A stretch of 64,000 nt of DNA from an uncultured Bacilli bacterium. GTDB taxonomy: Bacteria; Bacillota_I; Bacilli_A; RF39; UBA660. Under the pieces are notes generated by a model. It made no database searches. It worked only from the letters and a program-made list of their open reading frames with translations, and was not told the origin of the DNA. The DNA lies in NCBI GenBank assembly GCA_947631205.1, contig CANRKL010000001.1:4802-68801 (forward strand), read 5' to 3'. A program made the position numbers and the translations under genes. Below, in pieces: positions 16,967-63,811 of this stretch; the stretch's first letter is position 1, and every line of letters begins with the position of its first letter.

Positions 16967-16973
16967 AATATGA

Positions 16974-16998
16974 CTATTACTTCGGTAATAGTTTTTAA
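16974..16998 (+). terminator. Rho-independent terminator.
   Basis: ACTATTAC-ttcg-GTAATAGT followed by TTTTT. Confidence 0.6.
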
Positions 16999-16999
16999 A

Positions 17000-17016
17000 T
17001 GTCAAAAATATGTCAA
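17000..17016 (+). promoter_or_regulatory. Second copy of the TGTCAA-N5-TGTCAA box, abutting the putative -35 of the next gene.
   Basis: TGTCAAAAATATGTCAA differs by one base from the copy at 16254-16270. A putative extended -10 TGTTACAAT lies at 17036-17044. Confidence 0.35.
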
Positions 17017-17072
17017 CTAGACAATATCTTAAAAAAATGTTACAATTAATTCTTCTATAGGAGCTGATAAAA

Positions 17073-17606: not shown

Positions 17607-17644
17607 TCTTTTTCTTTTTTCATATAATTTTATAGGTGATTTAA

Positions 17645-17887
17645 GTGAATCTTTATCAAACTATGCAAAAATTTTTATTAGATAAAAATTATTATTTAGA
17701 TATATGGGATACTTATATTCATGTCTATAATTTTATTGATATTGAAACATTAAATGAAAAATTAATTGTTCTAAATATGGAAAATTTTAAATTAGAAATA
17801 ACAGGTGAAGATTTTCGTGTTTTAAAACTAACTAAAAAAGAAATTTTAATTGAAGGCATCTTAAACAATGTGAGGATAAATAGATGA
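17645..17887 (+). CDS. yqfC: Sporulation protein YqfC.
   Basis: The LEITGEDFRVLKLTKKEILIEGILNNVRI pattern matches the YqfC family, and the yqfC-yqfD synteny is preserved. Confidence 0.7.
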   Translation: MNLYQTMQKFLLDKNYYLDIWDTYIHVYNFIDIETLNEKLIVLNMENFKLEITGEDFRVLKLTKKEILIEGILNNVRINR

Positions 17888-19002
17888 ATTATTTATGGTT
17901 AAAAATTAATAAAAAGTATAAAAATCGTCTCTTAATTAAATGTTATAAGAAAAAAATTACAGTATATGATACCAAAGAAGATAATAGTTTTATATATCTT
18001 AAAATTAGTAGTGAGGACTATAAAACATTTCAAAAATCAATAATATTTAAATACCAAGTTATTGGAGGGTGTGGTCCTAATAAAATTAAAAGTATTTTAA
18101 AAAAATACCATATCTTTTTCTTTTCTCTAATAGTTGTTTTCATTATTTTCTTTTTTCTTACCCATATAATGACTAAAGTAATTGTTATTCATTCTAATAA
18201 AGAAATAAGAGAACTAGTTACAAAATCTTTAAAAGAAAAAGGAATTAAAGAAAATAGTTTTAAAAAAAGCTATCAAGAAATTCAAAAAATTAAAGAAGAA
18301 ATATTAAATCTTTATCCAACTAAACTTGAATGGTTAGAAATAGAAGTAAAAGGAATGAATTATATTGTACGAGTAGAAGAAAGAAAAATAAAAGAAGAAG
18401 AAGTAGAAAAAGATAGATGTAATATAATTGCTACCAAAGATGCCATAATAAAAAAAATAATTTATTCAAAAGGAGAAGCTATTGTTGAAGCTAATGATTA
18501 TGTTAAAAAAGGTGATATTTTAATATCTGGAGTTTTAAAAAAAGATGAAGAAGAAAAAGGAGTAGTATGCGCAAGTGGAAAAGTATTAGGAGAAGTTTGG
18601 TATAAAATAACTTTAAATATTCCTAAAGTAAAAGAAATAACAGAACCTACTGGTAAAAAAAGATGGAATTTAAAACTTAGCAATAATACATATAATGATT
18701 TAATATTTAAAAGTAGACTAGATAATTATCAAACAGAAGAACACCATTTATTTACTCTATTTGGAAGTACTTTATCTTTTGTAGTCCAAAAAGAAATTAC
18801 AAAAAAAACAGTTACACTTTCTAATGAAGAATTAAAACAAATTGCCGAAGATGAAATTAAAGATAAACTAAATATTAAAGATGATGAAGATAAAGAAATA
18901 ATTGATAAAAAAATTTTAACTGAAGAAATTAATGATGATAATTTAACTATGGAGTTTTTTGTGGTCGTCTTAGAAAAAATTAGTCAAAGTATTGAATTTT
19001 AA
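17884..19002 (+). CDS. yqfD: Sporulation protein YqfD-like (stage IV).
   Basis: It has the expected size and a single TM near residues 75-95. It is translationally coupled after yqfC and lies in the yqfCD-ybeY-era-recO synteny. Confidence 0.6.
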   Translation: MNYLWLKINKKYKNRLLIKCYKKKITVYDTKEDNSFIYLKISSEDYKTFQKSIIFKYQVIGGCGPNKIKSILKKYHIFFFSLIVVFIIFFFLTHIMTKVIVIHSNKEIRELVTKSLKEKGIKENSFKKSYQEIQKIKEEILNLYPTKLEWLEIEVKGMNYIVRVEERKIKEEEVEKDRCNIIATKDAIIKKIIYSKGEAIVEANDYVKKGDILISGVLKKDEEEKGVVCASGKVLGEVWYKITLNIPKVKEITEPTGKKRWNLKLSNNTYNDLIFKSRLDNYQTEEHHLFTLFGSTLSFVVQKEITKKTVTLSNEELKQIAEDEIKDKLNIKDDEDKEIIDKKILTEEINDDNLTMEFFVVVLEKISQSIEF

Positions 19003-19070
19003 ATTTGCCAAAACTAAGAATTAATAGTACAATATAAATTAAGAAACAAAAGAATAGAAGTGGTGATAAA

Positions 19071-19688
19071 ATGGAAATAAAGATTTTAACTGAGACATTA
19101 GAAAATATTTGGCCTATGCTTACTATCTTTTTAGTTGTTATAATAGCTATGCGTATTACATCTATCAAAGTTAAAAATGAAAAATTTGTTTTCTATCGTG
19201 AATTTATGAATTTAATATTCATTATCTATGCAATGCTTTTATTCCAATTACTTACTGATACAGAGCTAAATACTTCTAGTGGAATTAATTTAGTTCCATT
19301 TACCGAAATAATGCGTTATAAAATGGGTACAGATGCCTTTAAATTAAATGTAATTGGCAATATATTAATCTTTTTACCATTTGGTTACTTTGTTTCTAAT
19401 TATGTAAAAGCCAATAAAATAAGCCATATTTTAATTATAAGTGTCATAACTTCTTTTACTGTTGAGTTTGTTCAGCATTACATCGGAAGAAGTTTTGACA
19501 TTGATGATATTTTGCTAAATGTTGTTGGTTCTATTTTAGGATTTTTACTTTACATTGCCTTAAATGCTATAGAAAAACATTTACCAAGATTTTTTAGAAG
19601 TGAAATGTTTTATAATATAATTTGTATTGTTTTATTTGCAGTATTTATGGTATACTTTACAAGAATTATTGGTTTAGGGTGGTTTTAA
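19071..19688 (+). CDS. VanZ-like membrane protein.
   Basis: It has multiple TM helices and a VanZ-family-like composition. The identification is weak. Confidence 0.5.
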   Translation: MEIKILTETLENIWPMLTIFLVVIIAMRITSIKVKNEKFVFYREFMNLIFIIYAMLLFQLLTDTELNTSSGINLVPFTEIMRYKMGTDAFKLNVIGNILIFLPFGYFVSNYVKANKISHILIISVITSFTVEFVQHYIGRSFDIDDILLNVVGSILGFLLYIALNAIEKHLPRFFRSEMFYNIICIVLFAVFMVYFTRIIGLGWF

Positions 19689-20128
19689 TGAATTATAGTA
19701 TTAATAATAATTATGGTTATAATAAAGATTTTAGCTATTTAGATGAGGTTATCCAAGAAACATTAATAAAAGAACATTGTCAAAATGCTGTTTTTTCCAT
19801 AATTTTTGTTAATGAAGAAGAAATAAAAAAAATTAATAAAATGTATAGAAATATTGATAAAATAACTGATGTTATTAGTTTTGCTTTAGAAGATGGAGAA
19901 AGTATTTTAAGCGATTTAAGAGTTTTAGGAGATATTTATATATGTATTCCCAAAATGATTAATCAAGCTATAGAATATAATCATAGCGAAAAAAGAGAAT
20001 TATCATTCTTAACAGTTCATGGGCTTTTGCATCTTTTAGGCTATGACCATACAAAAAGTGTTGAAGAAGAAAAAATTATGTTTAAAAAGCAAAATGACAT
20101 ATTAGAAAATTTAAACATCATAGAATAG
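19688..20128 (+). CDS. ybeY: rRNA maturation endoribonuclease YbeY.
   Basis: The HGLLHLLGYDH zinc-binding motif is present. The start was placed at the ATG overlapping the upstream stop (TAATG). The track ORF begins earlier, at 19622. Confidence 0.85.
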   Translation: MNYSINNNYGYNKDFSYLDEVIQETLIKEHCQNAVFSIIFVNEEEIKKINKMYRNIDKITDVISFALEDGESILSDLRVLGDIYICIPKMINQAIEYNHSEKRELSFLTVHGLLHLLGYDHTKSVEEEKIMFKKQNDILENLNIIE

Positions 20129-20138
20129 GAAGTGAAAT

Positions 20139-21017
20139 ATGAAAAGTGGATTTGTAAGTATAGTTGGAAGACCTAATGTGGGAAAATCAACCTTATTGAA
20201 TGCTATTTTAAAATATAAAGTAGCTATAACTTCAAATAAGGCTCAAACAACAAGAAATATCATTGAGGGAATCTATAATGAAAAAGATTGTCAAATTGTC
20301 TTTGTTGACACTCCTGGTATTCATAAGCCTCAAAATAAACTAGGCAGGATTTTAAACAAAGAATCTTTTACCTTTACTAAAGATGTTGATGTTATTTTAT
20401 TTGTTATTGATGCTAAAACAGGAATGGGTAAAGGAGATAAATTTATTTTAGAAACACTTACTAAAAGCTCATCACCCGTATTTTTAATCTTAAATAAAAT
20501 AGATATGACTTCTACTGAAAAATTAATGGCTATGATAAATGAATATCAAACATATTTTCCATTTGCCGAAATCATTCCCACTAGTGCTTTAAAAAGAGAT
20601 AATATTGAACACTTAATAGAAGTCGTAAAAGGCTATCTCACTGATAATGTCCGTTATTTTAGTGAAGATATGATTACCAGTAATTCTAAAAACTTTATGG
20701 TTAGTGAAATAGTTAGAGAAAAATTACTTCACTTAACTGTTGAAGAAGTTCCTCATAGCCTAACTTGCCTAACTACAAGTTTTGAAGAAAAAGCTAAAAT
20801 TATTAATATCACTGTTGATATAATAGTAGACCGTGATTCAATCAAAAAAATTGTCATAGGAAAACATGGCGAAAGACTAAAAGAAGTAGGAATTTTAGCT
20901 AGAAAAGACATGGAAAGCATGTTAGGGAAACAAGTTTATTTAGAACTATATGTCAAAACAATTAAAAATTGGCGAGAAAAAGTTCGTTATTTAAAAGAAT
21001 TAGGCTTTAATGAATAA
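20139..21017 (+). CDS. era: GTPase Era.
   Basis: The GTPase motifs are G1 GRPNVGKST and G3 DTPG, and there is a C-terminal KH domain. Confidence 0.95.
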   Translation: MKSGFVSIVGRPNVGKSTLLNAILKYKVAITSNKAQTTRNIIEGIYNEKDCQIVFVDTPGIHKPQNKLGRILNKESFTFTKDVDVILFVIDAKTGMGKGDKFILETLTKSSSPVFLILNKIDMTSTEKLMAMINEYQTYFPFAEIIPTSALKRDNIEHLIEVVKGYLTDNVRYFSEDMITSNSKNFMVSEIVREKLLHLTVEEVPHSLTCLTTSFEEKAKIINITVDIIVDRDSIKKIVIGKHGERLKEVGILARKDMESMLGKQVYLELYVKTIKNWREKVRYLKELGFNE

Positions 21018-21970: not shown

Positions 21971-22957
21971 ATGATTAATGAAAATGAAAAAAATGAATAT
22001 TTGTTAAATGATAAAGTAGTAAAAAAATTATTTACAAGTAGTAAAGTTGGAAATGAACTAATGCTTACGATAACAAGTTTGATAACAGGAATATCCCTAG
22101 AAAATTTAAAAAGAGACTTTGAACTCATTCACCCAGATATTGGCGTAAATAAAAATATTATAAATAGTGAAGCAGATGTAGCTTTTGAAAACCAAGAAGG
22201 AATATTTTCTTTTGAGTTTAATTATACTCCTTATAGAGGACTAACTGAGAAAAGCATGAGTTATGTATGCCAGTTTTATCTAAGACAAATAAATCATAAA
22301 GAAGATTATAAAAAACTAAAGAAAGTATACTCTATTAATGTCAATAATTTTGATTATTTTAAATTAAATAGATTTGTATATATAAGTGAAATGAGGGAAA
22401 GAAAAAGTGGATTATCAAGAAATGTTGGAATATATTATATAGATATAAATCTGGACTATTTAAGAAAAATAGGTTATGATAAAGATAACAAAAGTTGTTT
22501 AGAGAAAATATTATACATGTTTGTGTGTAATGACCTAGATGAGTTAAAAGAAATATATAAGGGTGATGAGCTAATGAGTAAAGTAATCAAAGAAGCAGAA
22601 TTAATAGTTAAAGATTTAGATTTATTAATGTATTATGATAAGAAAAAATTAGATGAAGAATGTTCTTATTATAATGGACAAGTTGATGGTTTTAATTCTG
22701 GAGTTGAAAAGGGAATTGACATTGGAATACAGCAACTAGCCAAAAAAATGTTAGATAAAAAAATTGATATAGAAACTATTCAAGAAGTCACAGGTTTAAG
22801 TGAAAAAGAAATAAAAGAGTTAGATAAAAATGATATAACTACATTTGTAGAAGAAAGAAAAAAAGAATTAAAAAAACAAATAGGAGAAGAAATAACTAAA
22901 TCTACTACCTTATCTGAAGAAGAAAAAGATTGGTTAAAAGAAAAACATGATTTATAA
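21971..22957 (+). CDS. Rpn/YhgA-like PD-(D/E)XK nuclease family protein (recombination-promoting nuclease / putative transposase family).
   Basis: The N-terminal PDDEXK_2-like region includes ..DVAFENQEGIFSFEF. A characteristic C-terminal helix motif reads KGIDIGIQQLAKKMLDKKIDIETIQEVTGLSEKEIKEL. Confidence 0.6.
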   Translation: MINENEKNEYLLNDKVVKKLFTSSKVGNELMLTITSLITGISLENLKRDFELIHPDIGVNKNIINSEADVAFENQEGIFSFEFNYTPYRGLTEKSMSYVCQFYLRQINHKEDYKKLKKVYSINVNNFDYFKLNRFVYISEMRERKSGLSRNVGIYYIDINLDYLRKIGYDKDNKSCLEKILYMFVCNDLDELKEIYKGDELMSKVIKEAELIVKDLDLLMYYDKKKLDEECSYYNGQVDGFNSGVEKGIDIGIQQLAKKMLDKKIDIETIQEVTGLSEKEIKELDKNDITTFVEERKKELKKQIGEEITKSTTLSEEEKDWLKEKHDL

Positions 22958-23072: not shown

Positions 23073-23834
23073 ATGAAAAAGAGTATTGCAATATTTTCAA
23101 CTAAAGGTGGAGTAGGGAAAACAGTTTTCACTCTTAATCTAGCAGGAATATATGAAACTTTAGGTAAAAAAGTATTAATTATTGATTATGATTTAACTAA
23201 TGGTGGAATTGCTTTATCCCTTAATAAAGAATTTAATAAAACAATCCATGATTATGCTTATGACATTTTTGCTAATCAAAAAAAGAGTTTAAAAGAATAC
23301 ACAACTAAATATGATGAATATATTGATTTTATAGCTAGCCCTAAAGACCCTAGATTAGTAAGTCAAATAGATAACTATGCAATTATTTCATTAATAAATG
23401 AAGCTAGTCACAATTATGATGTTATACTAATTGATACAAATCATGTTTTAACCGCGTCCAATTTAGTTTTACTTGATGGAGTAGATGAGATTTTGTTTTT
23501 AGCAACCAATGACCCAATTGATTTAAAAAATCTTAAAAATCTTTTAGTTATTTTCAAAAATAATCAAAAAACAAACTATAAAATTTTACTAAACGATTCT
23601 TATAATCCTTATAAAAATTATTTTTCATTATATGATATTAAAAATATTATTAAAGCTAATATCGATTATACTTTAACTAACAACTTTTTTGTTAAAAATA
23701 TTGACCAATACATTATGAATGGAGAAATCTTAACTTTACAAAAAGATGCTCCTAAAGTATTTGACAAAGATTATGCTAATCTCCTTAAATTAGCGGTTGA
23801 TTATATGGAAAAGGATGATAATAATGGCAAATAA
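23073..23834 (+). CDS. ParA/MinD-superfamily ATPase, CpaE/TadZ-like.
   Basis: It carries the deviant Walker A STKGGVGKT. It lies immediately upstream of, and overlaps, a CpaF-like gene. Confidence 0.65.
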   Translation: MKKSIAIFSTKGGVGKTVFTLNLAGIYETLGKKVLIIDYDLTNGGIALSLNKEFNKTIHDYAYDIFANQKKSLKEYTTKYDEYIDFIASPKDPRLVSQIDNYAIISLINEASHNYDVILIDTNHVLTASNLVLLDGVDEILFLATNDPIDLKNLKNLLVIFKNNQKTNYKILLNDSYNPYKNYFSLYDIKNIIKANIDYTLTNNFFVKNIDQYIMNGEILTLQKDAPKVFDKDYANLLKLAVDYMEKDDNNGK

Positions 23835-25107
23835 AAAATTAATAGAAATATTTGGAATGGATAAAGAAAAGAATAGCAATAAAACTAGTTATACTTTCCC
23901 CAAAGAAGAACTCCTAGAAGAATTACGAAAAAAAATAATTAATATCCTTTTAAGTGATAGTAGTAAAAAAATAGATGAAGGAATTAAAGAAGCTACTGAA
24001 GGATTAGAACTAACCAACATGGAATTAAACTACTTATCTAATTTAATCGAAAATGAATTACTTGGACAAGGCCCATTATTTTCTGTCCTAAAAGATGAAC
24101 TAGTTAAAACTATTATGATAAATGGTAAAGATGAAGTCTATATTGAAACTAATAATCAAATTATTAAAGATGATTCAATTAAGTTTATTGATGAATCTCA
24201 TATTATTAGAACAATTACTAATCTTTTAAAAGAAAGTAACCAAAATCTTAATTTAGATGAAAAAATAATCGATACCAGACTAGATGATGGGACAAGAATT
24301 AATGGAATTTTGCCACCCCTAGCTAAAAAAGGCCCAGTCTTTACTATTCATAAGTTTCAAAAAAATATCAATACGATGGAAGATTATGTTAGACTTGGTT
24401 CCCTAACAACAGATATGGCTAACTTTTTAGAAGCTACCCTTAAAGCTAAAGCTAACATTTTAATAACGGGACTTACTGGTTCTGGTGCAACATCTATACT
24501 AAGAACCTTAGGAAATTCCTTAGATGATGATAAAAGAATAATTACTTTAGAAGAAATTAGTGAATTAAATTTAATTAAGCCTAACTTAGTATCTTTAGAA
24601 TTACATAACAATCATATCCCCATAAAAGAAATCTTAAAAAAAGTTATCCGAATGAATCCCAATTATCTTTTAGTTAATGATTTATTTGCAAGTGACTTCC
24701 TGAGTTTTTTAGAAATAATGAATTTAGGAGTCGATGGTATAGTTGCAACCATGCACGCTAGAGATATCAAAGATGCTTTAAAAAGAATAGAATTAGAGCC
24801 ATCAATTAAAGGCTTAAATATTCCCCTTAATATTATGCGAGAAAATATTGTCAATGCCCTTAATATTATCATTAATGTTGAAAAAATGAACGACAATAAA
24901 CAAAAAATTACCTCTATTAGTGAATTAAAATATCTAAATGGAGAAATTAAAATTGAAGAAATATTTTCTTTTCAAAAAAAATCAATTAATCAAAATGAAG
25001 AAGTGATAGGAGAATATACTTTTTATCCTAAAAACTGTCAAATTGTCAATATATTTAGAAAAAAAGGTATTCATGATATAGATTATCTATTTAATAATAA
25101 AAAATAA
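23797..25107 (+). CDS. CpaF/TadA-family secretion ATPase homolog with degenerate catalytic motifs; predicted pseudo-ATPase.
   Basis: The CpaF-diagnostic segments IMINGKDEVYIE and DTRLDDGTRINGILPPLAKKGPVFTIHKF are present. However, the Walker A is GLTGSGATS (the lysine is replaced by Ala). The GEVRG catalytic Glu segment is replaced by NDLFA. The His-box TGH is replaced by LGV. Confidence 0.7.
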   Translation: MIIWKRMIIMANKKLIEIFGMDKEKNSNKTSYTFPKEELLEELRKKIINILLSDSSKKIDEGIKEATEGLELTNMELNYLSNLIENELLGQGPLFSVLKDELVKTIMINGKDEVYIETNNQIIKDDSIKFIDESHIIRTITNLLKESNQNLNLDEKIIDTRLDDGTRINGILPPLAKKGPVFTIHKFQKNINTMEDYVRLGSLTTDMANFLEATLKAKANILITGLTGSGATSILRTLGNSLDDDKRIITLEEISELNLIKPNLVSLELHNNHIPIKEILKKVIRMNPNYLLVNDLFASDFLSFLEIMNLGVDGIVATMHARDIKDALKRIELEPSIKGLNIPLNIMRENIVNALNIIINVEKMNDNKQKITSISELKYLNGEIKIEEIFSFQKKSINQNEEVIGEYTFYPKNCQIVNIFRKKGIHDIDYLFNNKK

Positions 25108-25121
25108 AAGGAAGTGATATT

Positions 25122-25814
25122 GTGCAAACAATTATTATAACTCAAATAATATCTAGTTTTGTTTTAGTTATTTTATTTGTTATTTTAATTAAACAAAAAA
25201 GAATTAAAAGTTTTGATGAAAGATTTGCAAATTTTACACTTAAAGAAAATCCTTTAATAAATCCTAAAAGTGATGCTTTAATAACTATTAAAGAAGAAGA
25301 TTTACACTCTTTTCTAACCGTACTATATAATCATTTAAATAATGGCTTATCAGTTACCTCATCCCTTAAAAAAATGCAAAATGATAATCTTAGTTTTATT
25401 GCCGATATTTTATTAGAAAAATTAAATGAAGGCTTAAATATTTCCATGGCTTTTACTTATTTAGCTAAAAAAACAAATTTATCACTTTTATCCGACATCA
25501 GTCATTTTTTAACAGTTACAGAAAAAATTAATGGTAAAGAAGAACTAGCTTTAATGACCATTATTCAAAATATTAAAGATAAAATCTATCAAAACAAAGA
25601 AAAAGACATTTTAAGAAGCATTATTAAATTTGTTTCCTATATAATTTTATTTATACCTATTTTAACACTAGGAATTATTATTCTAATTAATAATACTTTC
25701 TTTTTTCAAATTTTAACTACTTTAAAAGGAATAATTTACTTTATTTTAATAATCTTAATTTATCTTATTTATTTATTAATAGTAAAATTTATATTGGGAG
25801 TGAGTAAGTTATGA
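25122..25814 (+). CDS. TadB/GspF-like inner-membrane platform protein (tentative).
   Basis: It has an N-terminal TM, a cytoplasmic helical domain, then two or three TM helices. Its position after a CpaF-like gene also fits. Confidence 0.4.
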   Translation: MQTIIITQIISSFVLVILFVILIKQKRIKSFDERFANFTLKENPLINPKSDALITIKEEDLHSFLTVLYNHLNNGLSVTSSLKKMQNDNLSFIADILLEKLNEGLNISMAFTYLAKKTNLSLLSDISHFLTVTEKINGKEELALMTIIQNIKDKIYQNKEKDILRSIIKFVSYIILFIPILTLGIIILINNTFFFQILTTLKGIIYFILIILIYLIYLLIVKFILGVSKL

Positions 25815-26437
25815 AGAAAGCCAAAGAAAGATTAAATGCCAAGCAAAATCTTATCCATTTAAAAATTAAAGTAAATACATTTATTTATCTTCGTTTAATG
25901 ATTATTTTAGTCTTGCTAATTTTTTGTGCATCTCTAAAAAAACCTGGAATTTTTATTTTTATTATATTAGGTTCAATTATTTATTTTGGAAGTGAAGCTA
26001 TATTCTATGATTATCCTCTTTTTACTAAAAGAAAAAAAGAGTATGATGAGTTTATAGAGTTTCTTTCCTTCTTAAAACTAGAGCCAAATTTAAAAGAAAA
26101 TGTAATAGACAGTATTATAAATGTCTTAAATGAAGTAAATTATTCTTTCAGCGATACTTTACGGAGTATTGCCCAAAAAAGAAAATATGGCGAAAAAGAA
26201 AAAATAGATAATTTTTTTATTAATCAAGATATTAAAAATGGATTAGAACTTATTTTAAGTAATGATTTTCTAAAAAATCCTTATCTTATTGATGAAGTAA
26301 GTAATAAAATAAGCCAAAATGAGCTATTAAGAACTAAAAAACAAATGGCTTCTATTCCCATCATTCTATTTATTGTCTCCTTAATATTTACTTTAACTAT
26401 TAGTTACTTATTTTACTATATTAGTACTATTTTATAA
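25811..26437 (+). CDS. TadC-like membrane protein (tentative).
   Basis: Its topology is similar to the preceding gene, to which it is translationally coupled. Confidence 0.35.
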   Translation: MKKAKERLNAKQNLIHLKIKVNTFIYLRLMIILVLLIFCASLKKPGIFIFIILGSIIYFGSEAIFYDYPLFTKRKKEYDEFIEFLSFLKLEPNLKENVIDSIINVLNEVNYSFSDTLRSIAQKRKYGEKEKIDNFFINQDIKNGLELILSNDFLKNPYLIDEVSNKISQNELLRTKKQMASIPIILFIVSLIFTLTISYLFYYISTIL

Positions 26438-41221: not shown

Positions 41222-41998
41222 ATGAAAAAATTAAATGAACTATTACAAGAACTAGGAATATCCAAAGTTCGTTTAGCCAAATATTTAGGAGTATCTAGAC
41301 AAATGGTCTATAACTATTTAGATTTAGATGACATCAATAAATGGCCCAAAGAAAAAAAATTATTATTATTACAATTATTAGATATTGAAGATGGCGATGA
41401 ATCTACTATCAATAATATTGCCATTACAACTGATTATTTAATGAATATTGAAAATCGTTTAAATCAAACAATTAAAACTGGTAATACAAGTGATACATAT
41501 TTAGATTTTAAAAATCTTGATAAAGAATCACAAACATTATTAACTAGTATAATTAATATAATAAAAGAAAAGTTGACTGATGAACGTCATCATGAAGAAA
41601 ATCTATATACATTTACTTATTTAAATAATTTATTACAATCATTAGATAATGTTCCAGAAATAAAATATATTTTTGGTTATATGTCTAAAACAACTGGATT
41701 TACTAAAGTTAATGAATTTAAATTTAATGAAGATAAGCAATATATTTTTGAAGGCATTTTATTTACCGCTTTGACTTTATATAATAATGGGGGAGCCTCA
41801 AGAAGTCGTTTAACTGAGTCACATCGTCGTTGGGAACAAGAAATAGAGCAGAAGAATGAAGATAAACTTAGTCGAACAGAGCAACTTAATACTTTAAAAA
41901 TTCAAGCTTTAAAAGAATTAGGATATAATAAAATGACTACAGAAAATGCTGAAGAATTATTAGAAAAAATAGCTGAGATAGAATCTCGAAAAGTATAA
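41222..41998 (+). CDS. Hypothetical protein with an N-terminal XRE-like helix-turn-helix.
   Basis: The HTH reads LLQELGISKVRLAKYLGVSRQMVYNY. The C-terminal half is unknown. Confidence 0.5.
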   Translation: MKKLNELLQELGISKVRLAKYLGVSRQMVYNYLDLDDINKWPKEKKLLLLQLLDIEDGDESTINNIAITTDYLMNIENRLNQTIKTGNTSDTYLDFKNLDKESQTLLTSIINIIKEKLTDERHHEENLYTFTYLNNLLQSLDNVPEIKYIFGYMSKTTGFTKVNEFKFNEDKQYIFEGILFTALTLYNNGGASRSRLTESHRRWEQEIEQKNEDKLSRTEQLNTLKIQALKELGYNKMTTENAEELLEKIAEIESRKV

Positions 41999-42005
41999 GC
42001 AAAGT

Positions 42006-42027
42006 AGGGGAGCAACTCCCCTATTTT
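42006..42027 (+). terminator. Rho-independent terminator.
   Basis: AGGGGAG-caa-CTCCCCT followed by ATTTT. Confidence 0.55.
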
Positions 42028-42525
42028 CATTTTTAAAAAATCATTATCAAATATTTTGCTTTATAACATTATCTCCTATATTTAAATAATTGCATTTATA
42101 ATATACTATATATATAAAATATAATTTGCATTCAAATATAATAATTATTAAAAACATATCATTCAATTTAATTTAATTTTAACTAATTTTTATTATCACT
42201 TAATTTTTGATATTTTTAATTTGCATTATAATTATCTTATATGGATAATTCCTTTATTGATGGTAATTTTTTATTAAATATAAATTTGAAATGAGATGGA
42301 TAATTAATCATCTTTAATTATTTCGATGCAAATTATCAAAGAGTAAAATAACTACAAAATATCTAATAAATACAATAAATAAAAAAATATTTGAATTTTA
42401 ATAATTTAATAAATTTATATATAACTAACTATAACTATATATAATAGATAATAATTCTATTAATTCAATATAATCTATTATTGATATTTTCTTATATTTT
42501 TTAATCTATTTATATTATTATTTAT

Positions 42526-42553
42526 CAATTACATAATATATATTATGTTAACC
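42526..42553. other. dif: Chromosome dimer resolution site dif (Xer recombination site).
   Basis: The site reads CAATTACATAA-TATATA-TTATGTTAACC. The central region is identical to B. subtilis dif (TATATA). The XerD arm matches both E. coli (TTATGTTAAAT) and B. subtilis (TTATGTAAACT) at 9 of 11 positions, and the XerC arm ends ...CATAA as in E. coli. Confidence 0.7.
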
Positions 42554-42564
42554 GCGATATTTTA

Positions 42565-43323
42565 TTAGAATACAAAATGATTAATTAATAAGATTAATAT
42601 ACCTACTCCAATTCCTATTAAAAGCCAATTATCTTCATGATATTCTTTAGCTTTTGGTAATATCTCATGAATAGCTAATGTTATCATAATTCCAGCTACA
42701 AAAATTAAAATCATTCCAATCATGGCTTCAGTTATGAATTTTCTTAATAAAATAAAAGCTAAAACAGCTCCTAAAGGTTCAGCTAATCCCGATAAAAATG
42801 TTTTTTTAATTGCCTCTTTCTTCTTCCCTGTTGCATAATAAATGGGCACAGCAATACTTATCCCCTCAGGAATATTATGAAGCATAATAGCTAAACTTAA
42901 TTTGAGTCCTAAATAAATATTTTGATAACTACTTAAAAAAGTAACAATTCCCTCAGGAAAATTATGGAGCATTAAAGCAAGCATAGACAAAACCCCTACC
43001 CTATACAAGTCATTATTATAAGATGTAATTTTTTTATTAAGATAATAAATAAGAATTACACCTAAACAAAAAATAAAAATAGAAATTAGAAAACCTTTAA
43101 AAAGCTTAAATTCAGTAAGAATAGCATAAGAGGCTTCTGGGATTAATTCACTAACTGAAATACCAATCATAATAGTTAAAGAAAAAGCCAAAGAAAAAAC
43201 AATAAATTTATTAATGTTTTCTCTTTGCCATTTAAAAAATATTACTAAAGAACCTAAAACAGTTGATAGACCAGCGATAGAAGATATTAATAATGGAATT
43301 AAAAAGTGCATATTATCACCCAT
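42565..43323 (-). CDS. zupT: ZIP-family zinc transporter ZupT.
   Basis: It has eight TM helices and the HNFPEG / HNIPEG motifs. Confidence 0.85.
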   Translation of the reverse strand: MGDNMHFLIPLLISSIAGLSTVLGSLVIFFKWQRENINKFIVFSLAFSLTIMIGISVSELIPEASYAILTEFKLFKGFLISIFIFCLGVILIYYLNKKITSYNNDLYRVGVLSMLALMLHNFPEGIVTFLSSYQNIYLGLKLSLAIMLHNIPEGISIAVPIYYATGKKKEAIKKTFLSGLAEPLGAVLAFILLRKFITEAMIGMILIFVAGIMITLAIHEILPKAKEYHEDNWLLIGIGVGILILLINHFVF

Positions 43324-43362: not shown

Positions 43363-44271
43363 TTATTTTTTTCTCTTTAATGTTTGCTTGCGTTCTAAAT
43401 AATAATCTTCACTTATAACTTTTAATTTTAATAAATCATCTAAAGATAAATCATAAATACTATCCATATCATATGATTCTAATACTTTTTCACTACCATA
43501 TTTTTTTACTAATTCCCCAACTTCTTCATTATCATAAGGCTTATTATATCCCCTACTCAAATAACGTGCTTTTTCTTCTTCATCAAAAATAAATGGATTA
43601 TCATCACTTATTTTTTCCGGCATAAAATATTTTTCTTCTCCATGTAAATTTAATCTATTCATATCTAAATTAAATGAAGATAAATACTCGACAATAAAAC
43701 CCCTTAGTTTCATATAAGATTCTAATATATGAATAGCTCTATCTAACCAAAAATTATAATCACTACCATACATCTTTAATAAATGTTCTTTAACTTTAGA
43801 ATCAACTACTGAATTATATCTTGTTACATAATTTTTAACATCTTCATTGCACAAAATATCACTAGTAACTTCATCAATAAATCTTTTAAATTTTGAACTT
43901 CTGTTTATTCTAATATCTTTTTCATGATTTTCTACTTTAGCTAATCTTTCCTGCATAATATTTTGTAAATATATAATAAAATTAGGATTAAAATCTTTTG
44001 AAGGCTTAAATAATCCATTATAAAATTTATTTTCATAAGTTCCTTTTATCTTATTATATTTAGAACGAACTACATATATATTTTTTTGAGTTAAATCAAT
44101 ATTACTATTTTCTTTAATCATCTTAACAAATTCATCTTTAGTATAAGAAATTGTTTCTAAATCAATTGCTGTAATATCTTTAAATCCTAAGTCATACCCC
44201 GGAACAAAACTAAATAAATAAGAATCATCTAAATACATTAAATAATAATTATATGTTTGCATTAATATCAC
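43363..44271 (-). CDS. Hypothetical protein.
   Basis: The ORF is 302 aa and no motif was recognised. Confidence 0.45.
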   Translation of the reverse strand: MILMQTYNYYLMYLDDSYLFSFVPGYDLGFKDITAIDLETISYTKDEFVKMIKENSNIDLTQKNIYVVRSKYNKIKGTYENKFYNGLFKPSKDFNPNFIIYLQNIMQERLAKVENHEKDIRINRSSKFKRFIDEVTSDILCNEDVKNYVTRYNSVVDSKVKEHLLKMYGSDYNFWLDRAIHILESYMKLRGFIVEYLSSFNLDMNRLNLHGEEKYFMPEKISDDNPFIFDEEEKARYLSRGYNKPYDNEEVGELVKKYGSEKVLESYDMDSIYDLSLDDLLKLKVISEDYYLERKQTLKRKK

Positions 44272-44521: not shown

Positions 44522-45430
44522 TTATTTTTCCTCCTTTTTTTGGGCTCTAGGATGGGTATTTAAATATTCATCATGTGTGTGTTCACTAGATAAATGAGTA
44601 TAAATTTGAGTTGTTGCAATATCACTATGACCTAGTAATTCTTGAATAATTCGTAAATCTGCACCATTTTGTAATAAATGAGTAGCAAAAGAATGTCTTA
44701 AAGTGTGAGGTGAGATATTTTTCTTGATTGAAGCTTTTTGACACAAAGATTTAAGAATTTTAAAAAAACCTTGTCTTGTAATAACTAACCCTCGATTATT
44801 CAAAAAAATATTATCCGTATTCTTACCTTTTTTTATTAATAATGGACGATACTTATCCATATATAAACTTAAATATTTCTTACTTGTTTCATTTATTGGA
44901 ACTATTCTTTCTTTAGACCCCTTCCCTAAAATTCTTATTGAATCATTTTTAAAATCAATATTATTAAATTTTAAATTAATTAACTCACTAACCCGAAGAC
45001 CGCTTCCATACATTAATTCTAACATAGCCTTTGTCCTAAAATCATAAGGTGTATTTAAAGGAATATTAAGAAGCCTATCAGTTTCTTCATAAGTTAAAAC
45101 TTCAGGTAATTTTTTATTAACTTTTGGTAATAAAATATTCTCACAAGGATTTTTAGTAATATAATCTTCTTTTAAACAAAAATGATAAAAACTATTAATT
45201 ACTGTTAAATAATGTGACCTAGTATTAGATGTTAGTTCTAAGTTATCTAAATTTTCTAAAAATTTTTTAATATCATCTTCTCTTAATTCTAATAAGTTTT
45301 TTTTAGAAAAGTAGCTCTCAAAAACATCTAATTCTTTAGCATAAGAAATTAAAGTATTTTCACTTAGTTTTTTAGCATATTTTAAGTATTCTATATATTC
45401 AGTTACTTTACTATTCACTACTATCACCAT
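44522..45430 (-). CDS. xerD: XerC/XerD-type tyrosine site-specific recombinase.
   Basis: The R..HxxR..Y catalytic signature is present (LRHSFATHLL...LGHSDIATTQIYTHL). The size of 302 aa is typical of Xer. A dif site lies 2 kb away. The XerC-versus-XerD assignment is not resolved. Confidence 0.75.
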   Translation of the reverse strand: MVIVVNSKVTEYIEYLKYAKKLSENTLISYAKELDVFESYFSKKNLLELREDDIKKFLENLDNLELTSNTRSHYLTVINSFYHFCLKEDYITKNPCENILLPKVNKKLPEVLTYEETDRLLNIPLNTPYDFRTKAMLELMYGSGLRVSELINLKFNNIDFKNDSIRILGKGSKERIVPINETSKKYLSLYMDKYRPLLIKKGKNTDNIFLNNRGLVITRQGFFKILKSLCQKASIKKNISPHTLRHSFATHLLQNGADLRIIQELLGHSDIATTQIYTHLSSEHTHDEYLNTHPRAQKKEEK

Positions 45431-50431: not shown

Positions 50432-52615
50432 CTAAAAATCGCTACCAATAAATCTTGGAGGTGGTGGATTGTCAACAGCTGGAGTATTTATATTTTCTGT
50501 TTCTAATGTATCTAAAGTATTTCCATCGGCTTTAGGTTCTGTTTGACTTACTTGATTATTACTAGGGCTAGCAAAAGGATTAAAGAAACTATTTGAAGGA
50601 TTATTTACCACTTCTTGTTCACTTATATTAGGTATTTCCATTGGATTTATATTAGAAACTATATTTTCATTATTATTCCCACCTACTTCGCTAGGAATAT
50701 TGTTTGAAGCATTAAGATTATTAGAAACATCTAAATTATTATTAAAGAATGAATTATTTTGTATGTTATCTTGACTATTAATATTATCAGGACTATTTAA
50801 ATCATTATTATCTATATTATTATCACTTGCTACTTGCCCATCATTATAATTTATATCTTTATTCCAACAATTTTTAACATTACAGTTAGAAGAATATGGT
50901 GGTGGATTAGGCATATCCATGCGAATAATCATTGGTATTTTAAAAGCCCCACCAAAGCCTACACAACTACCAGGTTGTAATGTTTTCTGCTTTTCAATAA
51001 CATCAGCTGAAATATTCGGTAACATCTCTTCAATATATTTTAAATCTTTAGGATGGGTCATTTTAAATATTAAGAAGTTAGATACTTGAGCAATTACTGT
51101 ATCACTAATTTCAACTGGTCTTTGAGAGATTATCCCAAGTAAAGTCCCATATTTTCGACCTTCTTTAGCTATTCTATCAAAAATATTATATCCTAATAAA
51201 AATGTATCGTTGTCATTTTGAATATAACGATGGGCTTCTTCTAATACTAAATGACATGGCATACTTGCTCTATCTTTTAATGACTTAGTATAATCAAAAA
51301 TAATTCTTGCGATAATTTTAACAATTACTTTTGCATAAACATCATCAACATCTTCAAGATTTATATTAATTATTTGAGCTTTTTTTCCATTATACATAAT
51401 TAAATTTTGAATAAACTCCGAAGGTGTTGTATATCCTTTATTTGTAAAATAACTTCCTACTTTAGTATTTAAAATAGAACTTATTCTAACTTTAAGAATA
51501 ATTGCATCATCATATACTTTACTATTATTTTGGAATCCCTCACTTATAAGAGTAAACTCTAAAGCTTTAGAAAAATCTAATATAGAATATGAATAAACTT
51601 CTGGTTCTTGCATACTTTCTAATTCTTCATCAATATGTTTTAAGATATAATCAGTTATTAAAACGGATTCTCCAAAATTACCATTAGAATCTATTTCAAA
51701 ACATTCAGAAAAACTTCTAGAATATCCAAGACCCGCAATACGAGAATCAAAATTAAAATCTTTAGTATGACAAGTTTCAATTATCGTAAATATTTCATTT
51801 TTTTTATGAGCTGTTGTTTGGTTACTAAATAAAATAGCTATTAGGGCTTTGGCAATTAAATGGTTCTTATAACGTTCACTTTCTTCAGTATTTTGACTAA
51901 ATATTTTAGCAAGTCTAATAGTTCTTTCAATAATTGGTAATTGACTATGATTACTTGCCTGTAATAATAAAGCCATATCATCTAATTTTAATAGGCAAAC
52001 AGGTATTTCAAGTGGTACATCACTTTCTTCTTGGACATTTGAAGTTATAAATTTATATTGATAATTTGGATTATATTGATTAATACTTTGAAAAGCATTT
52101 TTATATTCTCCATAAGCATCAAATAAGAAAAAATTAGCATTTAGTAAACTAGTTTTATCACTACCAAAAACATTTTGAATTATTCTTGATACTCCATGCG
52201 TTTTACCAGAACCAGAGTTTCCACAAATAAAGAAATGATTAGAAAAAAAGTCATTTATAAATGGATAAACTATATGGTCTTTATATATAGCGCTTGTTCC
52301 TAATTTAAAAGTTGATTCATTATCATCACCAATTAATAATCCTAACTCTTCATCATTAATAATTCTTATTTCGCTAGTAAGAAGTGGTTTTCTAATAACA
52401 CCATTAACATATCTACCATTAACATATTCCCCTAAAAAATTAATTTTAATAGTTTCCGGATTTATTTCTGATATTTCTCCTAATATTCTTTGATTTGGAG
52501 CTTCAAAAACAACGTGCATATTCATTAAATCAGTTGTCTCATCAGCTCTTAAAGTGTTTTCTATATGCGCAGCCGCTTCACTAATATACTTAATTTTTCC
52601 AAACATTTTAATCAC
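50432..52615 (-). CDS. HerA/DUF87-like P-loop ATPase (FtsK-HerA superfamily) with a ~190-aa Asn/Ser-rich disordered C-terminal tail ending in a PPPP motif.
   Basis: Walker A reads GNSGSGKTHGV and Walker B reads LVLEEAHRY, followed by AKEGRKYG...ISQRP, which is typical of HerA/DUF87. The low-complexity tail is NNIDNN...NPPPPRFIGSDF. Confidence 0.6.
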   Translation of the reverse strand: MIKMFGKIKYISEAAAHIENTLRADETTDLMNMHVVFEAPNQRILGEISEINPETIKINFLGEYVNGRYVNGVIRKPLLTSEIRIINDEELGLLIGDDNESTFKLGTSAIYKDHIVYPFINDFFSNHFFICGNSGSGKTHGVSRIIQNVFGSDKTSLLNANFFLFDAYGEYKNAFQSINQYNPNYQYKFITSNVQEESDVPLEIPVCLLKLDDMALLLQASNHSQLPIIERTIRLAKIFSQNTEESERYKNHLIAKALIAILFSNQTTAHKKNEIFTIIETCHTKDFNFDSRIAGLGYSRSFSECFEIDSNGNFGESVLITDYILKHIDEELESMQEPEVYSYSILDFSKALEFTLISEGFQNNSKVYDDAIILKVRISSILNTKVGSYFTNKGYTTPSEFIQNLIMYNGKKAQIININLEDVDDVYAKVIVKIIARIIFDYTKSLKDRASMPCHLVLEEAHRYIQNDNDTFLLGYNIFDRIAKEGRKYGTLLGIISQRPVEISDTVIAQVSNFLIFKMTHPKDLKYIEEMLPNISADVIEKQKTLQPGSCVGFGGAFKIPMIIRMDMPNPPPYSSNCNVKNCWNKDINYNDGQVASDNNIDNNDLNSPDNINSQDNIQNNSFFNNNLDVSNNLNASNNIPSEVGGNNNENIVSNINPMEIPNISEQEVVNNPSNSFFNPFASPSNNQVSQTEPKADGNTLDTLETENINTPAVDNPPPPRFIGSDF

Positions 52616-54342: not shown

Positions 54343-56463
54343 CTACCTTTTCTTTCCGATATTTAAATTATTTTTAACATTATTTAATTCCTCTAAAGCC
54401 CTTTTATCATCGCTATTTATTAATACTTCTTCAATAGTATTATTATTTCTAATAGCTAAATACCAATCTTCTGCCATAATTACTCTTTGATAATTTTGCC
54501 TATTAAAAGGTACAAATAAATCAAAATCAAAATCTTTTTGTTCTTGTAAACAATATATAACTCTTAATTTATTTATATAATCTTCATCTATATCTTCACT
54601 TACTAAACTTCTAGTTTTATAGTACTCTATAGGATAATTATTAGAAAAATTTAAATTTACATCTTCTATTTTATTATCCGTTATTACTCTTGCTAATTCT
54701 GTTAAATCAGCATGAGGAAAATTAAGTGGTATTTTTGGGTCATATATAGTAGGATATTTAGTTATTTGGTCTATCTGATTAGTCATGCTAGTCATAATAA
54801 CATACTTGATATAATCATTATTTTTAAGTGCTTCTTCTTTTATTTGTCTTGATATTTTATCTAAAAAATTTTCATTGACTAAATCATTTAAAACTTGAGC
54901 ATTTTTAGCAAATATTCTTCCTAATATAACAAAATTTCCTTTGCGAAACATAAGAATTCTTGCCACAAATGAATTAGTATTTTTGTCTCTAATCATTATG
55001 ACATCGCCATCTTTTTCTAATAAAGCTTTCCTATAAGCTGGACGGCCACTTACATTTAATAAATCAATACAACTATTTCCAAATTTACCAATTAATAAAC
55101 GTTCAGGATTTTGATAATCTTTAGATTCATAAACATAATTTTGATATTCTCCATAAACATTAGGAATATAACTACTTCTTTTTTGAAACATTGTTGCATA
55201 AAATGCTGCATATTTATGCCTATTTAATGTAAATATTTGTTGTAAAACATTTTGAGGCAAAAGATAATTTACATATTTATTTTTCCAATTGTTTTGATTA
55301 ACATAAAGTATATATTGATGAAGATTACTTATAAATGTTCCAAATGATATTTCACTTTTATGAAATATTTTGTTTGTAATGGTATTATAATTATTTAAGA
55401 TATTAATAAAATCTTCACTTTGTAATTCTGGAAAAAAATTAACAAACGGAAGAAGCTTAAATAAATCTTGATAAATATTTTGATAATTAGCTATTTCCTC
55501 CCATTTACTTTCATCTTCTCTTAAATAAATATCTATAGCGTTCTCTAAATAATTTTTATTTCTAACTATAGCAAAATTATTATAGTTAAAAGGTAAGCTC
55601 ATTTTATCTTCAAGAGTAATATTTAAATGATATTTTTGAAAGTCCATATTTGGTATTTTATCAATTAATATTTTATTAAATTTTCTAACAATAATTTTAC
55701 TAACCTCATCATTATTAATAATTTTGTTTACTTCATCATAAGTTAACTTTCCATTTAAAAACATTCTCTCTAACTCATCAAATACTTGAGAAGTTATATA
55801 ATAATTTAAATCCCTTATATCTTTTATTGAATTAATATACCCTCTTAAATCACAAGTATCCCTTTTTAACTCTTCTAATGAAGTATTTAAAGCACTATAG
55901 TTTTTAGAAGCAAAATTTTCAACAATAATTTTAATTTTTTTACTATTCATGAGTGAATTATATTTTCTTTTTGATAACTTCATTTTTCTTTTTAATTCAT
56001 TTATAATATTTTCTTTTTCTTTTCGTCTAAAATTATTATCAAAATAATCTAATATTTTAGAAAAAAACTTAGTTATTAAACTATCCGGCAAAAACTCATT
56101 AATTATATATATATTATACATTTTATTTAACTCTTTATATATGACATCATAGCTAATTATTTCTTCTTTTTCAAGTAAGTGAATTTTTTGATAAATATTT
56201 TTAGTTAAATATTTTAAAGATAATCCTTCATCTTCATTAATTTCTTTAAATCCATAACGAATTTCTTCATTAATTACATCAATATTAATAAATGTATTGT
56301 TTTCTCTATAATTAATTAATCTAATAGCTATAATTGAGTCAATTAAACTGTTTAAAATACTTTGCCATTTTTCTTGAACGTCTAAATCATCTTCTACTAC
56401 TGGTCTATAAATAATATTCATAATATCTGTATATTCTAAATGTTTTTTATTTTTGTATTCCAT
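54343..56463 (-). CDS. Large hypothetical cytoplasmic protein (706 aa) embedded in the rplU-prp-rpmA-obg operon.
   Basis: No motif was recognised. Gaps of 10 bp and 30 bp to obg and rpmA imply co-transcription. Confidence 0.55.
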   Translation of the reverse strand: MEYKNKKHLEYTDIMNIIYRPVVEDDLDVQEKWQSILNSLIDSIIAIRLINYRENNTFINIDVINEEIRYGFKEINEDEGLSLKYLTKNIYQKIHLLEKEEIISYDVIYKELNKMYNIYIINEFLPDSLITKFFSKILDYFDNNFRRKEKENIINELKRKMKLSKRKYNSLMNSKKIKIIVENFASKNYSALNTSLEELKRDTCDLRGYINSIKDIRDLNYYITSQVFDELERMFLNGKLTYDEVNKIINNDEVSKIIVRKFNKILIDKIPNMDFQKYHLNITLEDKMSLPFNYNNFAIVRNKNYLENAIDIYLREDESKWEEIANYQNIYQDLFKLLPFVNFFPELQSEDFINILNNYNTITNKIFHKSEISFGTFISNLHQYILYVNQNNWKNKYVNYLLPQNVLQQIFTLNRHKYAAFYATMFQKRSSYIPNVYGEYQNYVYESKDYQNPERLLIGKFGNSCIDLLNVSGRPAYRKALLEKDGDVIMIRDKNTNSFVARILMFRKGNFVILGRIFAKNAQVLNDLVNENFLDKISRQIKEEALKNNDYIKYVIMTSMTNQIDQITKYPTIYDPKIPLNFPHADLTELARVITDNKIEDVNLNFSNNYPIEYYKTRSLVSEDIDEDYINKLRVIYCLQEQKDFDFDLFVPFNRQNYQRVIMAEDWYLAIRNNNTIEEVLINSDDKRALEELNNVKNNLNIGKKR

Positions 56464-63372: not shown

Positions 63373-63436
63373 ATCATCACCTATATTTATTATGGAAAAA
63401 CTTCTATTTTTTTAAACATTACATATTATTAATTAG

Positions 63437-63811
63437 GTGAAGTTTATGAAAATATTAAAAAAGTATGGTCTTAGTATTTTATATTTTATTGGGGTCATCT
63501 TAATTTTATCTTTAGTTATTTCTCTTTTTAACTTATTTAATTTATTTACAACCAAAACTGTTGATTTAATATTTATGATTTCCCTTTTAATAACATTTTT
63601 AATTTTTGGTTATCGTTTTGGCTTAAAAGCTTCTAAAAAAGGTTATTTAGAAGGCATAAAAATTGGACTTTCACTTATATTTACTTTAATTATAATTAAT
63701 CTAATTCTCTATCAAAGTCCAATTAGCCTAGAACGTATCTTATACTATGTTATCCTTATATCATCAAGCATTTTATCCTCCATGTTTGGTATTAACCGTC
63801 AAAAAAAGTAA
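63437..63811 (+). CDS. Small polytopic membrane protein.
   Basis: It has four predicted TM helices. No motif was recognised. Confidence 0.45.
   Translation: MKFMKILKKYGLSILYFIGVILILSLVISLFNLFNLFTTKTVDLIFMISLLITFLIFGYRFGLKASKKGYLEGIKIGLSLIFTLIIINLILYQSPISLERILYYVILISSSILSSMFGINRQKK

Follow-up and report, generated by a model that had tools for sequence, protein, structure and literature searches.

The locus and its candidate dif site

The stretch of DNA analysed here (64,000 nucleotides of a contig from an uncultured Bacilli bacterium, hereafter the window) contains a 28-mer at positions 42526–42553 that is very probably the chromosomal dif site, i.e., the recombination site of an XerCD system, of a low-GC, small-genome gut bacterium, located where the gene orientations of the two replichores converge. 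The site lies in a gap free of open reading frames (ORFs) at 41999–42564 (566 bp, GC 0.15), in agreement with the gap of ~560 bp and ~15% GC that an earlier sequence-only reading had described between convergent genes. On its left, the gap is bordered by a + strand gene (41222–41998), referred to as HTH258, which reads towards dif, is a conserved neighbour of it, and encodes a 258-aa protein with an N-terminal Xre-type helix-turn-helix (HTH), its helical C-terminal part being of unknown fold. The intrinsic terminator hairpin of HTH258 (42001–42027, + strand; TAGGGGAG-CAA-CTCCCCTA followed by a T run) is conserved in the related locus L005; on the – strand, this stem was likewise marked as terminator-like, although it has no T run there. 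On the XerC-arm side of dif extends an AT-rich (15% GC) non-coding spacer of 527 bp (41999–42525), with no substantial ORF and no Rfam match. On the other side, the 3′ edge of dif lies 11 nt from the stop codon of zupT (42565–43323, – strand; a ZIP zinc transporter gene, likewise reading towards dif), beyond which come a gene for a 302-aa protein without family match (43363–44271, – strand) and an xerD-type tyrosine recombinase gene (44522–45430, – strand).

The sequence-only reading had placed an XerC/D-type recombinase ~2 kb from the site, and the xerD-type gene indeed lies 1968 bp away. Its product scores above the cut-off of the XerD equivalog model TIGR02225 (336.8 vs. 329.6 bits), below that of XerC (308.4 vs. 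335.15 bits), and far under that of XerS (111.5 vs. 267 bits), and no paralogue was found by tblastn in the window. The window as a whole is chromosomal (hrcA-grpE-dnaK-dnaJ, nusB, xseA, proS, obg, recO, mnmA, rarA/mgsA, and spoIVB), and this housekeeping context argues against a plasmid residence of the site.

The coordinates and letters first reported for the 28-mer proved exact, i.e., an XerC-type arm CAATTACATAA (42526–42536), a TATATA centre (42537–42542), and an XerD-type arm TTATGTTAACC (42543–42553), read on the + strand and assigned from the sequence and from orthologues in the same slot. This is the 11-6-11 layout of dif, in which two imperfectly inverted 11-bp arms flank a 6-bp centre, and the innermost six positions of both arms are palindromic (ACATAA/TTATGT). 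Upon recomputation against the dif sites of Escherichia coli and Bacillus subtilis (the latter being ACTTCCTAGAATATATATTATGTAAACT, with the recombinases CodV and RipX), the XerD arm matched both at 9 of 11 positions, as had been claimed. The centre matched that of B. subtilis at 6/6 positions but that of E. coli at only 5/6, making the claimed identity with both species slightly generous. Moreover, the 20-nt core ATAATATATATTATGTTAAC is identical to that of the B. cereus/anthracis-type dif ACTGCCTATAATATATATTATGTTAACT predicted by Kono et al. in 2011 (supplement 2, PMC3025954), with which the XerD arm shares 10 of 11 positions.

Within the window, the 28-mer has no second copy at up to three mismatches. 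An exact match to the Firmicutes core ATAATATATATTATGTWAAC occurs there once, none of 100 shuffles yielded a match even at up to two mismatches, and we estimate the chance expectation of the 20-nt core at ~4e-5 per window.

Conservation of the site in relatives

The dif assignment draws on the 64-kb window and on the corresponding loci of relatives, which are metagenome-assembled genomes (MAGs) of uncultured gut "Bacilli", "Tenericutes", or "Mollicutes" with chromosomes of 1.2–1.5 Mb, filed by NCBI under Mycoplasmatota or Firmicutes; one named genus is placed in Mycoplasmatota. Proteins identical to those of the window were found on metagenome contigs only. Scanning a genome collection for XerD provided 80 loci (47–59% XerD identity), an independent scan of metagenomes for HTH258 provided 80 more, and eight closer relatives (75–80% HTH258 identity) were added; in the same-species contigs (L001–L004) the gap was identical and hence uninformative.

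A dif was present in 130 of the 169 related loci, in the form of 78 different 28-mers and in a conserved slot (mnmA > HTH258 > dif < zupT < xerD) in which the genes on both flanks read towards it. The gene order obtained across the clade by tblastn was mgsA, xerD, (zupT), dif, HTH258, mnmA. In the xerD-anchored set, a 28-mer with at most two to three core mismatches lay 2–6 kb downstream of xerD in ~60 of the 80 loci, and in the HTH258-anchored loci as well as in the eight closer relatives dif was again located directly downstream of HTH258. At positions outside the search pattern, the sites of the relatives have the canonical Firmicutes outer arm (ACTTCCT...T): among 47 aligned sites (46 relatives and the window), the unsearched positions fit the Firmicutes consensus with T4 at 91%, C5 at 87%, C6 at 77%, and T28 at 98%. 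The closest relatives share a common arm type nnATnnCATAA and carry XerC arms of the window's type (TTATCACATAA in L086, AAATAACATAA in L169, and ATATTGCATAA), several of them ending in ...AACC like the window, which argues that the odd XerC arm of the window is inherited and not foreign.

The recovery of a canonical dif between the same flanking genes from two independent anchors bears out the proposed site, and this comparative evidence is the decisive support for it, unlike the supports first proposed. The call itself is ordinary, as the site belongs to the known XerCD/dif kind, albeit in an unstudied clade.

Gene orientation, skew, and orienting motifs

Of all window ORFs of at least 120 aa, 54 out of 61 point towards dif, and the same holds for 1222 of 1413 genes in the relatives. 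Such a gene-orientation switch is the usual replichore signature in Firmicutes, and its repetition in relatives upholds the earlier proposal that the window spans a replichore junction. To the left of dif the window has positive GC skew and to the right negative skew, a pattern shared by almost all relatives; of ~60 relatives' loci, nearly all show the change in gene orientation and in skew at dif. The polarity switch that had been anticipated near 42.5 kb was recovered in part: cumulative GC skew in the window falls after a secondary maximum near 42000, but its main peak lies at 36774 because of the – strand spoIVB gene, and the switch is mostly a coding-strand effect.

Orienting octamers did not provide the support that had been expected of them. 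The polarity of GAAGAAG (37:0 to the left of dif and 2:13 to the right in the window) tracks the genes, and this motif was rejected as a replichore-orienting motif since it follows the coding strand within head-on genes of the relatives (6 on the leading vs. 79 on the lagging, i.e., coding, strand). Two further motifs are too infrequent to be informative: GAGAAGGG, with counts of 2:0 in the window and, for the leading strand of relatives, 19:0, and GGGNAGGG, for which the window has counts of 0:0 to the left of dif and 0:2 to the right. A de novo search for skewed k-mers in the relatives' loci returned AGGGGAG, with a ratio of 132:9 on the strand reading towards dif, 22:0 within head-on genes, and an ~18-fold over-representation. 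Its sole occurrences in the window are those in the terminator hairpin (at 42006 and 42016, within 42005–42023), one per strand. This k-mer may serve as an orienting motif, or else be an artefact caused by Shine-Dalgarno-like sequences and orthologous repeats; since it contains the Shine-Dalgarno-like GGAG and its orthologous positions are not independent, it was dropped as orienting evidence. Another conserved intergenic sequence, TTTAGATCTATGACATTTT, was observed in ~39 relatives' loci, always on the strand reading towards dif, and is absent from the window.

Assessment of the dif assignment

Several points weigh against the assignment. Neither xerC nor ftsK was seen among the ~30 of ~60 window ORFs scanned against protein families, and no FtsK_SpoIIIE domain was present in the about half of the window ORFs scanned against Pfam. 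When the skew was split between genes co-oriented with the inferred fork and head-on genes, the replication-only component was small (0.02, or 0.04 at third codon positions) compared to the coding-strand component (0.17–0.18); hence, the skew switch amounts in essence to a restatement of the switch in gene orientation. An independent signal from FtsK-orienting polar sequences (KOPS) or SpoIIIE recognition sequences (SRS) was not established with the known motifs in the window or the relatives, and the uniqueness of the 28-mer holds at the scope of the 64-kb window. Finally, the outer XerC arm CAATTAC deviates from the clade consensus ACTTCCT, and because of this atypical arm a full-length position weight matrix (PWM) derived from the Firmicutes dif list of Kono et al. 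gives the site only 10.6 bits, which is not above the maxima of random windows (mean 6.5 bits, highest 16.2 bits). As the full-length PWM score is unexceptional, the statistical case rests on the 20-nt core and the comparative evidence.

The second-best PWM match in the window is ACTTCACCTAATTAATAATATGTAATGT (63416–63443, – strand), which is situated between divergently oriented genes and whose outer XerC arm fits well. As a second dif it was rejected and judged a chance match, lacking the invariant ATAA/TTATG, and no other dif-like site was found in the window. With regard to the underlying predictions, the sites listed by Kono et al. for strains of Clostridium botulinum are displaced by 137–175 degrees from the skew shift point, and in C. 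perfringens and C. beijerinckii the prediction failed (supplement 2, PMC3025954), so that clostridial dif is poorly resolved by that method.

A sceptical view would hold that the 28-mer is a functionless AT-rich palindrome arisen by chance, in keeping with surrounding DNA of 15% GC that is rich in TA repeats and with the unexceptional full-length PWM score. However, the low chance expectation of the core and the absence of matches among shuffles stand against this view, and it is refuted by the conservation of an orthologous site in ~130 loci, leaving it barely credible. For the dif assignment itself, established XerCD/dif biology suggests how the site would function. The XerD-type recombinase encoded 2 kb away would bind the invariant arm TTATGTTAAC, and the variable arm would be bound by a partner, i.e., XerC (none seen in the window) or possibly the same XerD-type protein. 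At division, crossover across the TATATA spacer would then resolve chromosome dimers, with an FtsK/SpoIIIE translocase presumably licensing the reaction. The dif call fixes the chromosome terminus, which aids the scaffolding of MAGs and growth-rate estimates from origin/terminus coverage, and it reveals an arrangement of xerD, dif, and an HTH gene that is fixed across a large unstudied clade.

Separately, two – strand genes located 8–14 kb from dif encode a 727-aa HerA-like (DUF87) ATPase (50432–52615) and a 706-aa protein without family match (54343–56463). HerA is a member of the FtsK-HerA superfamily; no FtsK_SpoIIIE domain was detected.

The AT-rich flank and phage-like inserts at dif

AT-rich ORF-free flanks beside dif are the rule in the relatives (median gap ~700 bp at a 90-aa ORF threshold). 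Positions 42266–42605 of the window are colinear with L100 (68% over 386 nt), and 42300–42552 with L171. No second copy of the spacer was found in the window or the loci beyond low-complexity matches, and a search of the flank against Rfam gave none at the gathering score (the best being sraA, with 24 bits vs. a threshold of 56 and E = 0.36). The AT-rich flank is very probably the local form of a spacer that adjoins dif throughout the clade, and not an inserted element.

Xer-exploiting mobile elements (IMEX) such as CTXphi, VGJphi, and TLCphi of Vibrio, or the gonococcal genetic island (GGI), are known to insert at dif, and the sequence-only reading had accordingly suspected an insertion next to the site. 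That dif serves as an insertion point was confirmed in two relatives (not in the window). In L020, two direct dif-like sites (ACTTCCTATAATATATGTTATGTTAACT and AACTCCGATAGTATATGTTATGTTAACT) lie 6.4 kb apart (12658–19046) and enclose genes for a Rep_trans rolling-circle initiator and a Zot-like ATPase, while the sister loci L016 and L019 have a single dif with HTH258 starting ~0.6–1.0 kb beyond. Similarly, L008 carries a 6.9-kb insert between direct dif-like sites (13414–20300) that encodes a G2P-type Rep and a Zot-like protein. These inserts are probably inovirus-like prophages integrated at dif by Xer in the manner of CTXphi, and would extend this type of Xer exploitation to gut Bacilli. The presence of such prophages between direct dif copies suggests that the sites are used by Xer in nature, and would thereby lend indirect support to the functionality of dif in this clade.

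Given these precedents, the flank of the window might be the remnant of a decayed IMEX and the 28-mer a hybrid attachment site, as the outer XerC arm is atypical and as ATCTCCTATAT at 42071–42081 resembles the clade XerC arm (8/11). Nevertheless, the window has a single dif-like site, without any second site bearing an XerD arm or central region, and its flank is devoid of ORFs; the closest relatives (L086 and L169) share its type of XerC arm; the dif-proximal half of the flank (~42270 to dif), including the segment from the conserved unit described below up to dif, is colinear with relatives; and the pattern of that unit was not found in IMG/VR viral contigs. The ATCTCCTATAT half-site has an estimated chance probability of ~0.03–0.07 given the base composition and, with the actual XerC arm being of the sub-clade type, was dismissed as a chance resemblance. 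A decayed element is therefore very unlikely, and the proposed insertion was not substantiated.

As a further observation, 27 IMG/VR viral contigs (L173–L199) contain the 20-nt dif core ATAATATATATTATGTTAAC, and at least nine of these are whole contigs of 4–9 kb, i.e., of filamentous-phage size. The core copies on these contigs are possible IMEX attP sites or prophage-host junctions.

A conserved unit in the spacer beside dif

The unexpected result of the analysis is a conserved unit linked to dif, whose function can at best be inferred. The flank of the window holds what appears to be a new, clade-specific bipartite unit of ~45 bp, composed of GCATCGAGA, an A-tract, and a palindrome GATGAATAATTATTCATC. 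The best copy (TTTGCATCGAAATAATTAAAGATGATTAATTATCCATCTCATTTCAA, 42285–42335, – strand; E = 3e-11 in an nhmmer profile search) has its box 1 (GCATCGA) at 42331–42325 and its palindrome AGATGATTAATTATCCATCT at 42313–42294 (both on the – strand), the palindrome centre being ~219 bp from the XerC arm. A degenerate second unit (AATTTGCATTATAATTATCTTATATGGATAATTCCTTTATTGATGGTAA, with the direct repeats D1 and D2) is located in the opposite orientation at 42216–42266 (+ strand) and falls below the profile threshold, and there may be a third, strongly decayed unit at 42118–42170 (+ strand; TAATTTGCATTCAAAT...), for which the basis is weak. All three copies of the motif ATGCAAATTA in the 64-kb window (at 42122, 42217, and 42326) fall within this spacer, and the motif recurs in the HTH258-dif spacers of relatives. 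Homologous units are present in L085, L086, L100, L005, L165–L171, and others, and from the best copy up to dif the window aligns colinearly with L100 and L171.

From 16 clear copies, a profile was constructed that, after one iteration, was searched against 1.98 Mb, yielding 69 matches in 38 loci (E < 0.001), or 83 matches in 50 loci when the closer relatives were included (E < 0.01). All of these matches lie within 593 bp of dif, a zone that makes up 8.3% of the sequence searched. Since the 43 dif-bearing loci with units have 29 different dif 28-mers, the association does not trace back to one inherited accident. The consensus of the unit is GCATCGAGATATAAAAAGATGAATAATTATTCATCTCAATT, its best-kept columns being ATCGA.A and the symmetric G...A..T...CA.CT of the 20-bp palindrome. 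One to five copies occur per locus, 70 of 75 units are situated on the XerC-arm side of dif, and the palindrome centre of the dif-proximal unit lies at a median of –228 bp (interquartile range –260 to –210; –219 in the window). When the module is aligned, conservation is confined to the unit and dif and does not extend to the ~190 bp between them. These comparisons demonstrate an association of the predicted unit with dif, and the unit is most likely a protein-binding DNA motif.

The loci of one lineage, whose dif is ACTTCCTATAATTGATATTATGTTAACT, differ in the orientation of the site relative to unchanged flanking genes and units (L007, L038, L043, L050, L055, L063, and L084 vs. L025, L033, L040, L049, L051, and L052), which implies that dif, or a very short segment, has flipped in place.

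HTH258, a candidate binding protein

The gene adjoining dif provides one candidate for a protein that binds the unit. HTH258 orthologues adjoin dif in ~130 loci without exception, and in eight cases the stop codon of the gene directly borders the XerC arm. None of the 5219 homologues in the protein collection is named, no sequence match was found in the PDB, and Pfam and PHROGs gave only weak Xre-type matches. The AlphaFold model has a mean confidence (pLDDT, predicted local distance difference test) of 64, and Foldseek retrieves XRE HTH domains only, all with E > 0.3. HTH258 is put forward as an alternative candidate, next to a member of the ArgR family.

Possible functions of the unit

We tentatively propose that dif of this clade has a dedicated cis-acting accessory element of one to five units (GCATCGAGA, A-tract, and an ARG-box-like palindrome of 18–20 bp) ~230 bp from the core, which would be bound by a dedicated protein (of the ArgR family, or HTH258) and would control dimer resolution or terminus handling; we rate this proposal below even chances. 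If true, it would be the first chromosomal counterpart of the accessory sequences of the plasmid sites cer and psi, or a new terminus-marking system. Chromosomal dif sites are not known to require accessory DNA, and a dif-linked protein-binding element would therefore pose a directly testable question, i.e., whether it serves dimer resolution or terminus organisation in reduced genomes.

In its more specific form, units would act as accessory sequences do at cer and psi, with the bound protein (ArgR-like or HTH258) shaping the synapse or licensing strand exchange, and thus supplementing or replacing control by FtsK. The confinement of all 69–83 unit matches to within 593 bp of dif across ~29 lineages, the preferred distance of the dif-proximal unit, and the conservation of units within a non-conserved spacer are consistent with such a role, as is their prevalence on the XerC-arm side, where the accessory sequences of cer are also found (PMC2699498, PMC2409434). 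At cer, ~180 bp of accessory DNA adjoin the XerC arm, and a single Arg box is situated at a distance of 98 bp (PMC2409434, PMC2699498). Moreover, the family palindrome GATGAATAATTATTCATC matches the ARG-box consensus TNTGAATWWWWATTCANW (PMC5291005) at 16 of 18 positions. On the other hand, the palindrome of the window itself matches at 14/18, and its 14-bp core fits the ARG core only with two mismatches, which is at chance level (32 found vs. 44 expected); the ARG-box identity was therefore rejected for the window's own palindrome and kept as a lead at the level of the family consensus only. An Arg-box look-alike beside loxP is, moreover, non-functional (PMC2409434). Neither argR nor pepA was seen in the scanned window ORFs (about half), and the distance of ~220 bp from the core exceeds the 98 bp in cer. 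Many lineages are without a unit, some of them with the HTH258 stop codon abutting the XerC arm, so dif works without units, and in the ACTTCCTATAATTGATATTATGTTAACT lineage dif flips its orientation while the units keep their side. On balance, an accessory role of the cer/psi type seems doubtful.

Alternatively, the units may serve an aspect of terminus biology other than Xer catalysis, as the binding site of a terminus-organising, SMC-unloading, or fork-arrest protein (possibly HTH258), with dif merely marking the terminus. The same exclusive location near dif fits this explanation, and HTH258 is a DNA-binding-type protein encoded beside dif in every locus, with more than 5000 uncharacterised homologues. 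It is also reminiscent of the rtp gene of B. subtilis and the tus gene of E. coli, which adjoin their Ter sites, and the independence of the units from dif orientation in the ACTTCCTATAATTGATATTATGTTAACT lineage fits a role that is not tied to one arm. However, the units are one-sided, whereas a fork trap would need opposed orientations on the two sides of dif, and unit orientation varies between lineages (36 opposite and 21 same). In addition, HTH258 is also present in lineages without units, and its structural model is of low confidence with only the Xre HTH recognisable. We therefore consider a separate terminus function rather unlikely.

Lastly, the units could be promoters, operators, or a small structured RNA that are unrelated to dif and simply reside in the longest intergenic gap. 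One strand of the unit reads TTGCAT-N17-GATAAT/AATAAT, i.e., a sigma-70-like promoter overlapping a palindromic operator, and the arms show some covariation (column pair 10–49 being AU in 12 and CG in 10 cases). Nevertheless, either orientation faces the 3′ end of a convergent gene, leaving no downstream gene to drive, and the "–10" element is poor in many lineages (GATTAG); the unit was consequently dismissed as a promoter. It was likewise dismissed as a known or convincingly structured RNA, as there was no Rfam match in the window flank or in the relatives, RNAalifold predicted no consensus structure or pairs, and the named hairpin pairs in 68% of cells vs. 65% in shuffles. This explanation also leaves the dif-exclusive association over 1.98 Mb and the preferred distance unaccounted for, and is improbable. 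Resemblances of unit parts to a DnaA box, Fur box, cre, or CodY box were considered by eye, and none was compelling.

Other features of the window

Further away from dif, three consecutive + strand genes (23073–26437) encode a ParA/AAA_31-like ATPase, a T2SSE-type secretion ATPase, and a T2SSF-type membrane protein, and, in an organism with a reduced genome, probably constitute a cluster of the Tad/Flp pilus or competence-like type. In addition, a transposase-like protein of the PD-(D/E)XK nuclease family (PDDEXK_2; 21971–22957, + strand) is encoded amid housekeeping genes.

Comparison with known Xer systems

The site agrees with the XerCD/dif systems of Firmicutes in its 28-bp 11-6-11 layout, its TATATA centre, its core ATAATATATATTATGTTAAC of the B. 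cereus type, the convergence of gene orientations, and the XerD-type recombinase. It differs from them in the outer XerC arm of the window (CAATTAC vs. ACTKCCT), in the conserved HTH gene and conserved non-coding unit that flank it, and in that the clade keeps xerD within 2–6 kb of dif, whereas xerD is usually far from dif (Kono et al. 2011, PMC3025954).

The mobile elements CTXphi, VGJphi, TLCphi, and GGI have their likeness in L020 and L008, where elements of 6.4–6.9 kb with a rolling-circle Rep and a Zot-like ATPase are enclosed by direct dif-like sites; the window, in contrast, has a single site and no element, and the hosts are gut Bacilli instead of Proteobacteria. Compared to XerS/difSL of streptococci and XerH/difH of Helicobacter, the window has a classical 28-bp site and not a 31-bp difSL, its recombinase scores as XerD, and one or two genes intervene between recombinase gene and site, although in all these systems the recombinase gene is linked to its presumed site across a clade.

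Finally, cer of ColE1 and psi of pSC101 resemble the present locus in combining a core Xer site with a conserved element of the protein-binding type on the XerC side and within a few hundred bp, the family palindrome of the clade fitting the ARG-box consensus. Unlike in cer and psi, however, the site is chromosomal here, and the element lies ~220 bp away (98 bp in cer), is repeated one to five times, is absent from many relatives, and is not absolute in its choice of side.

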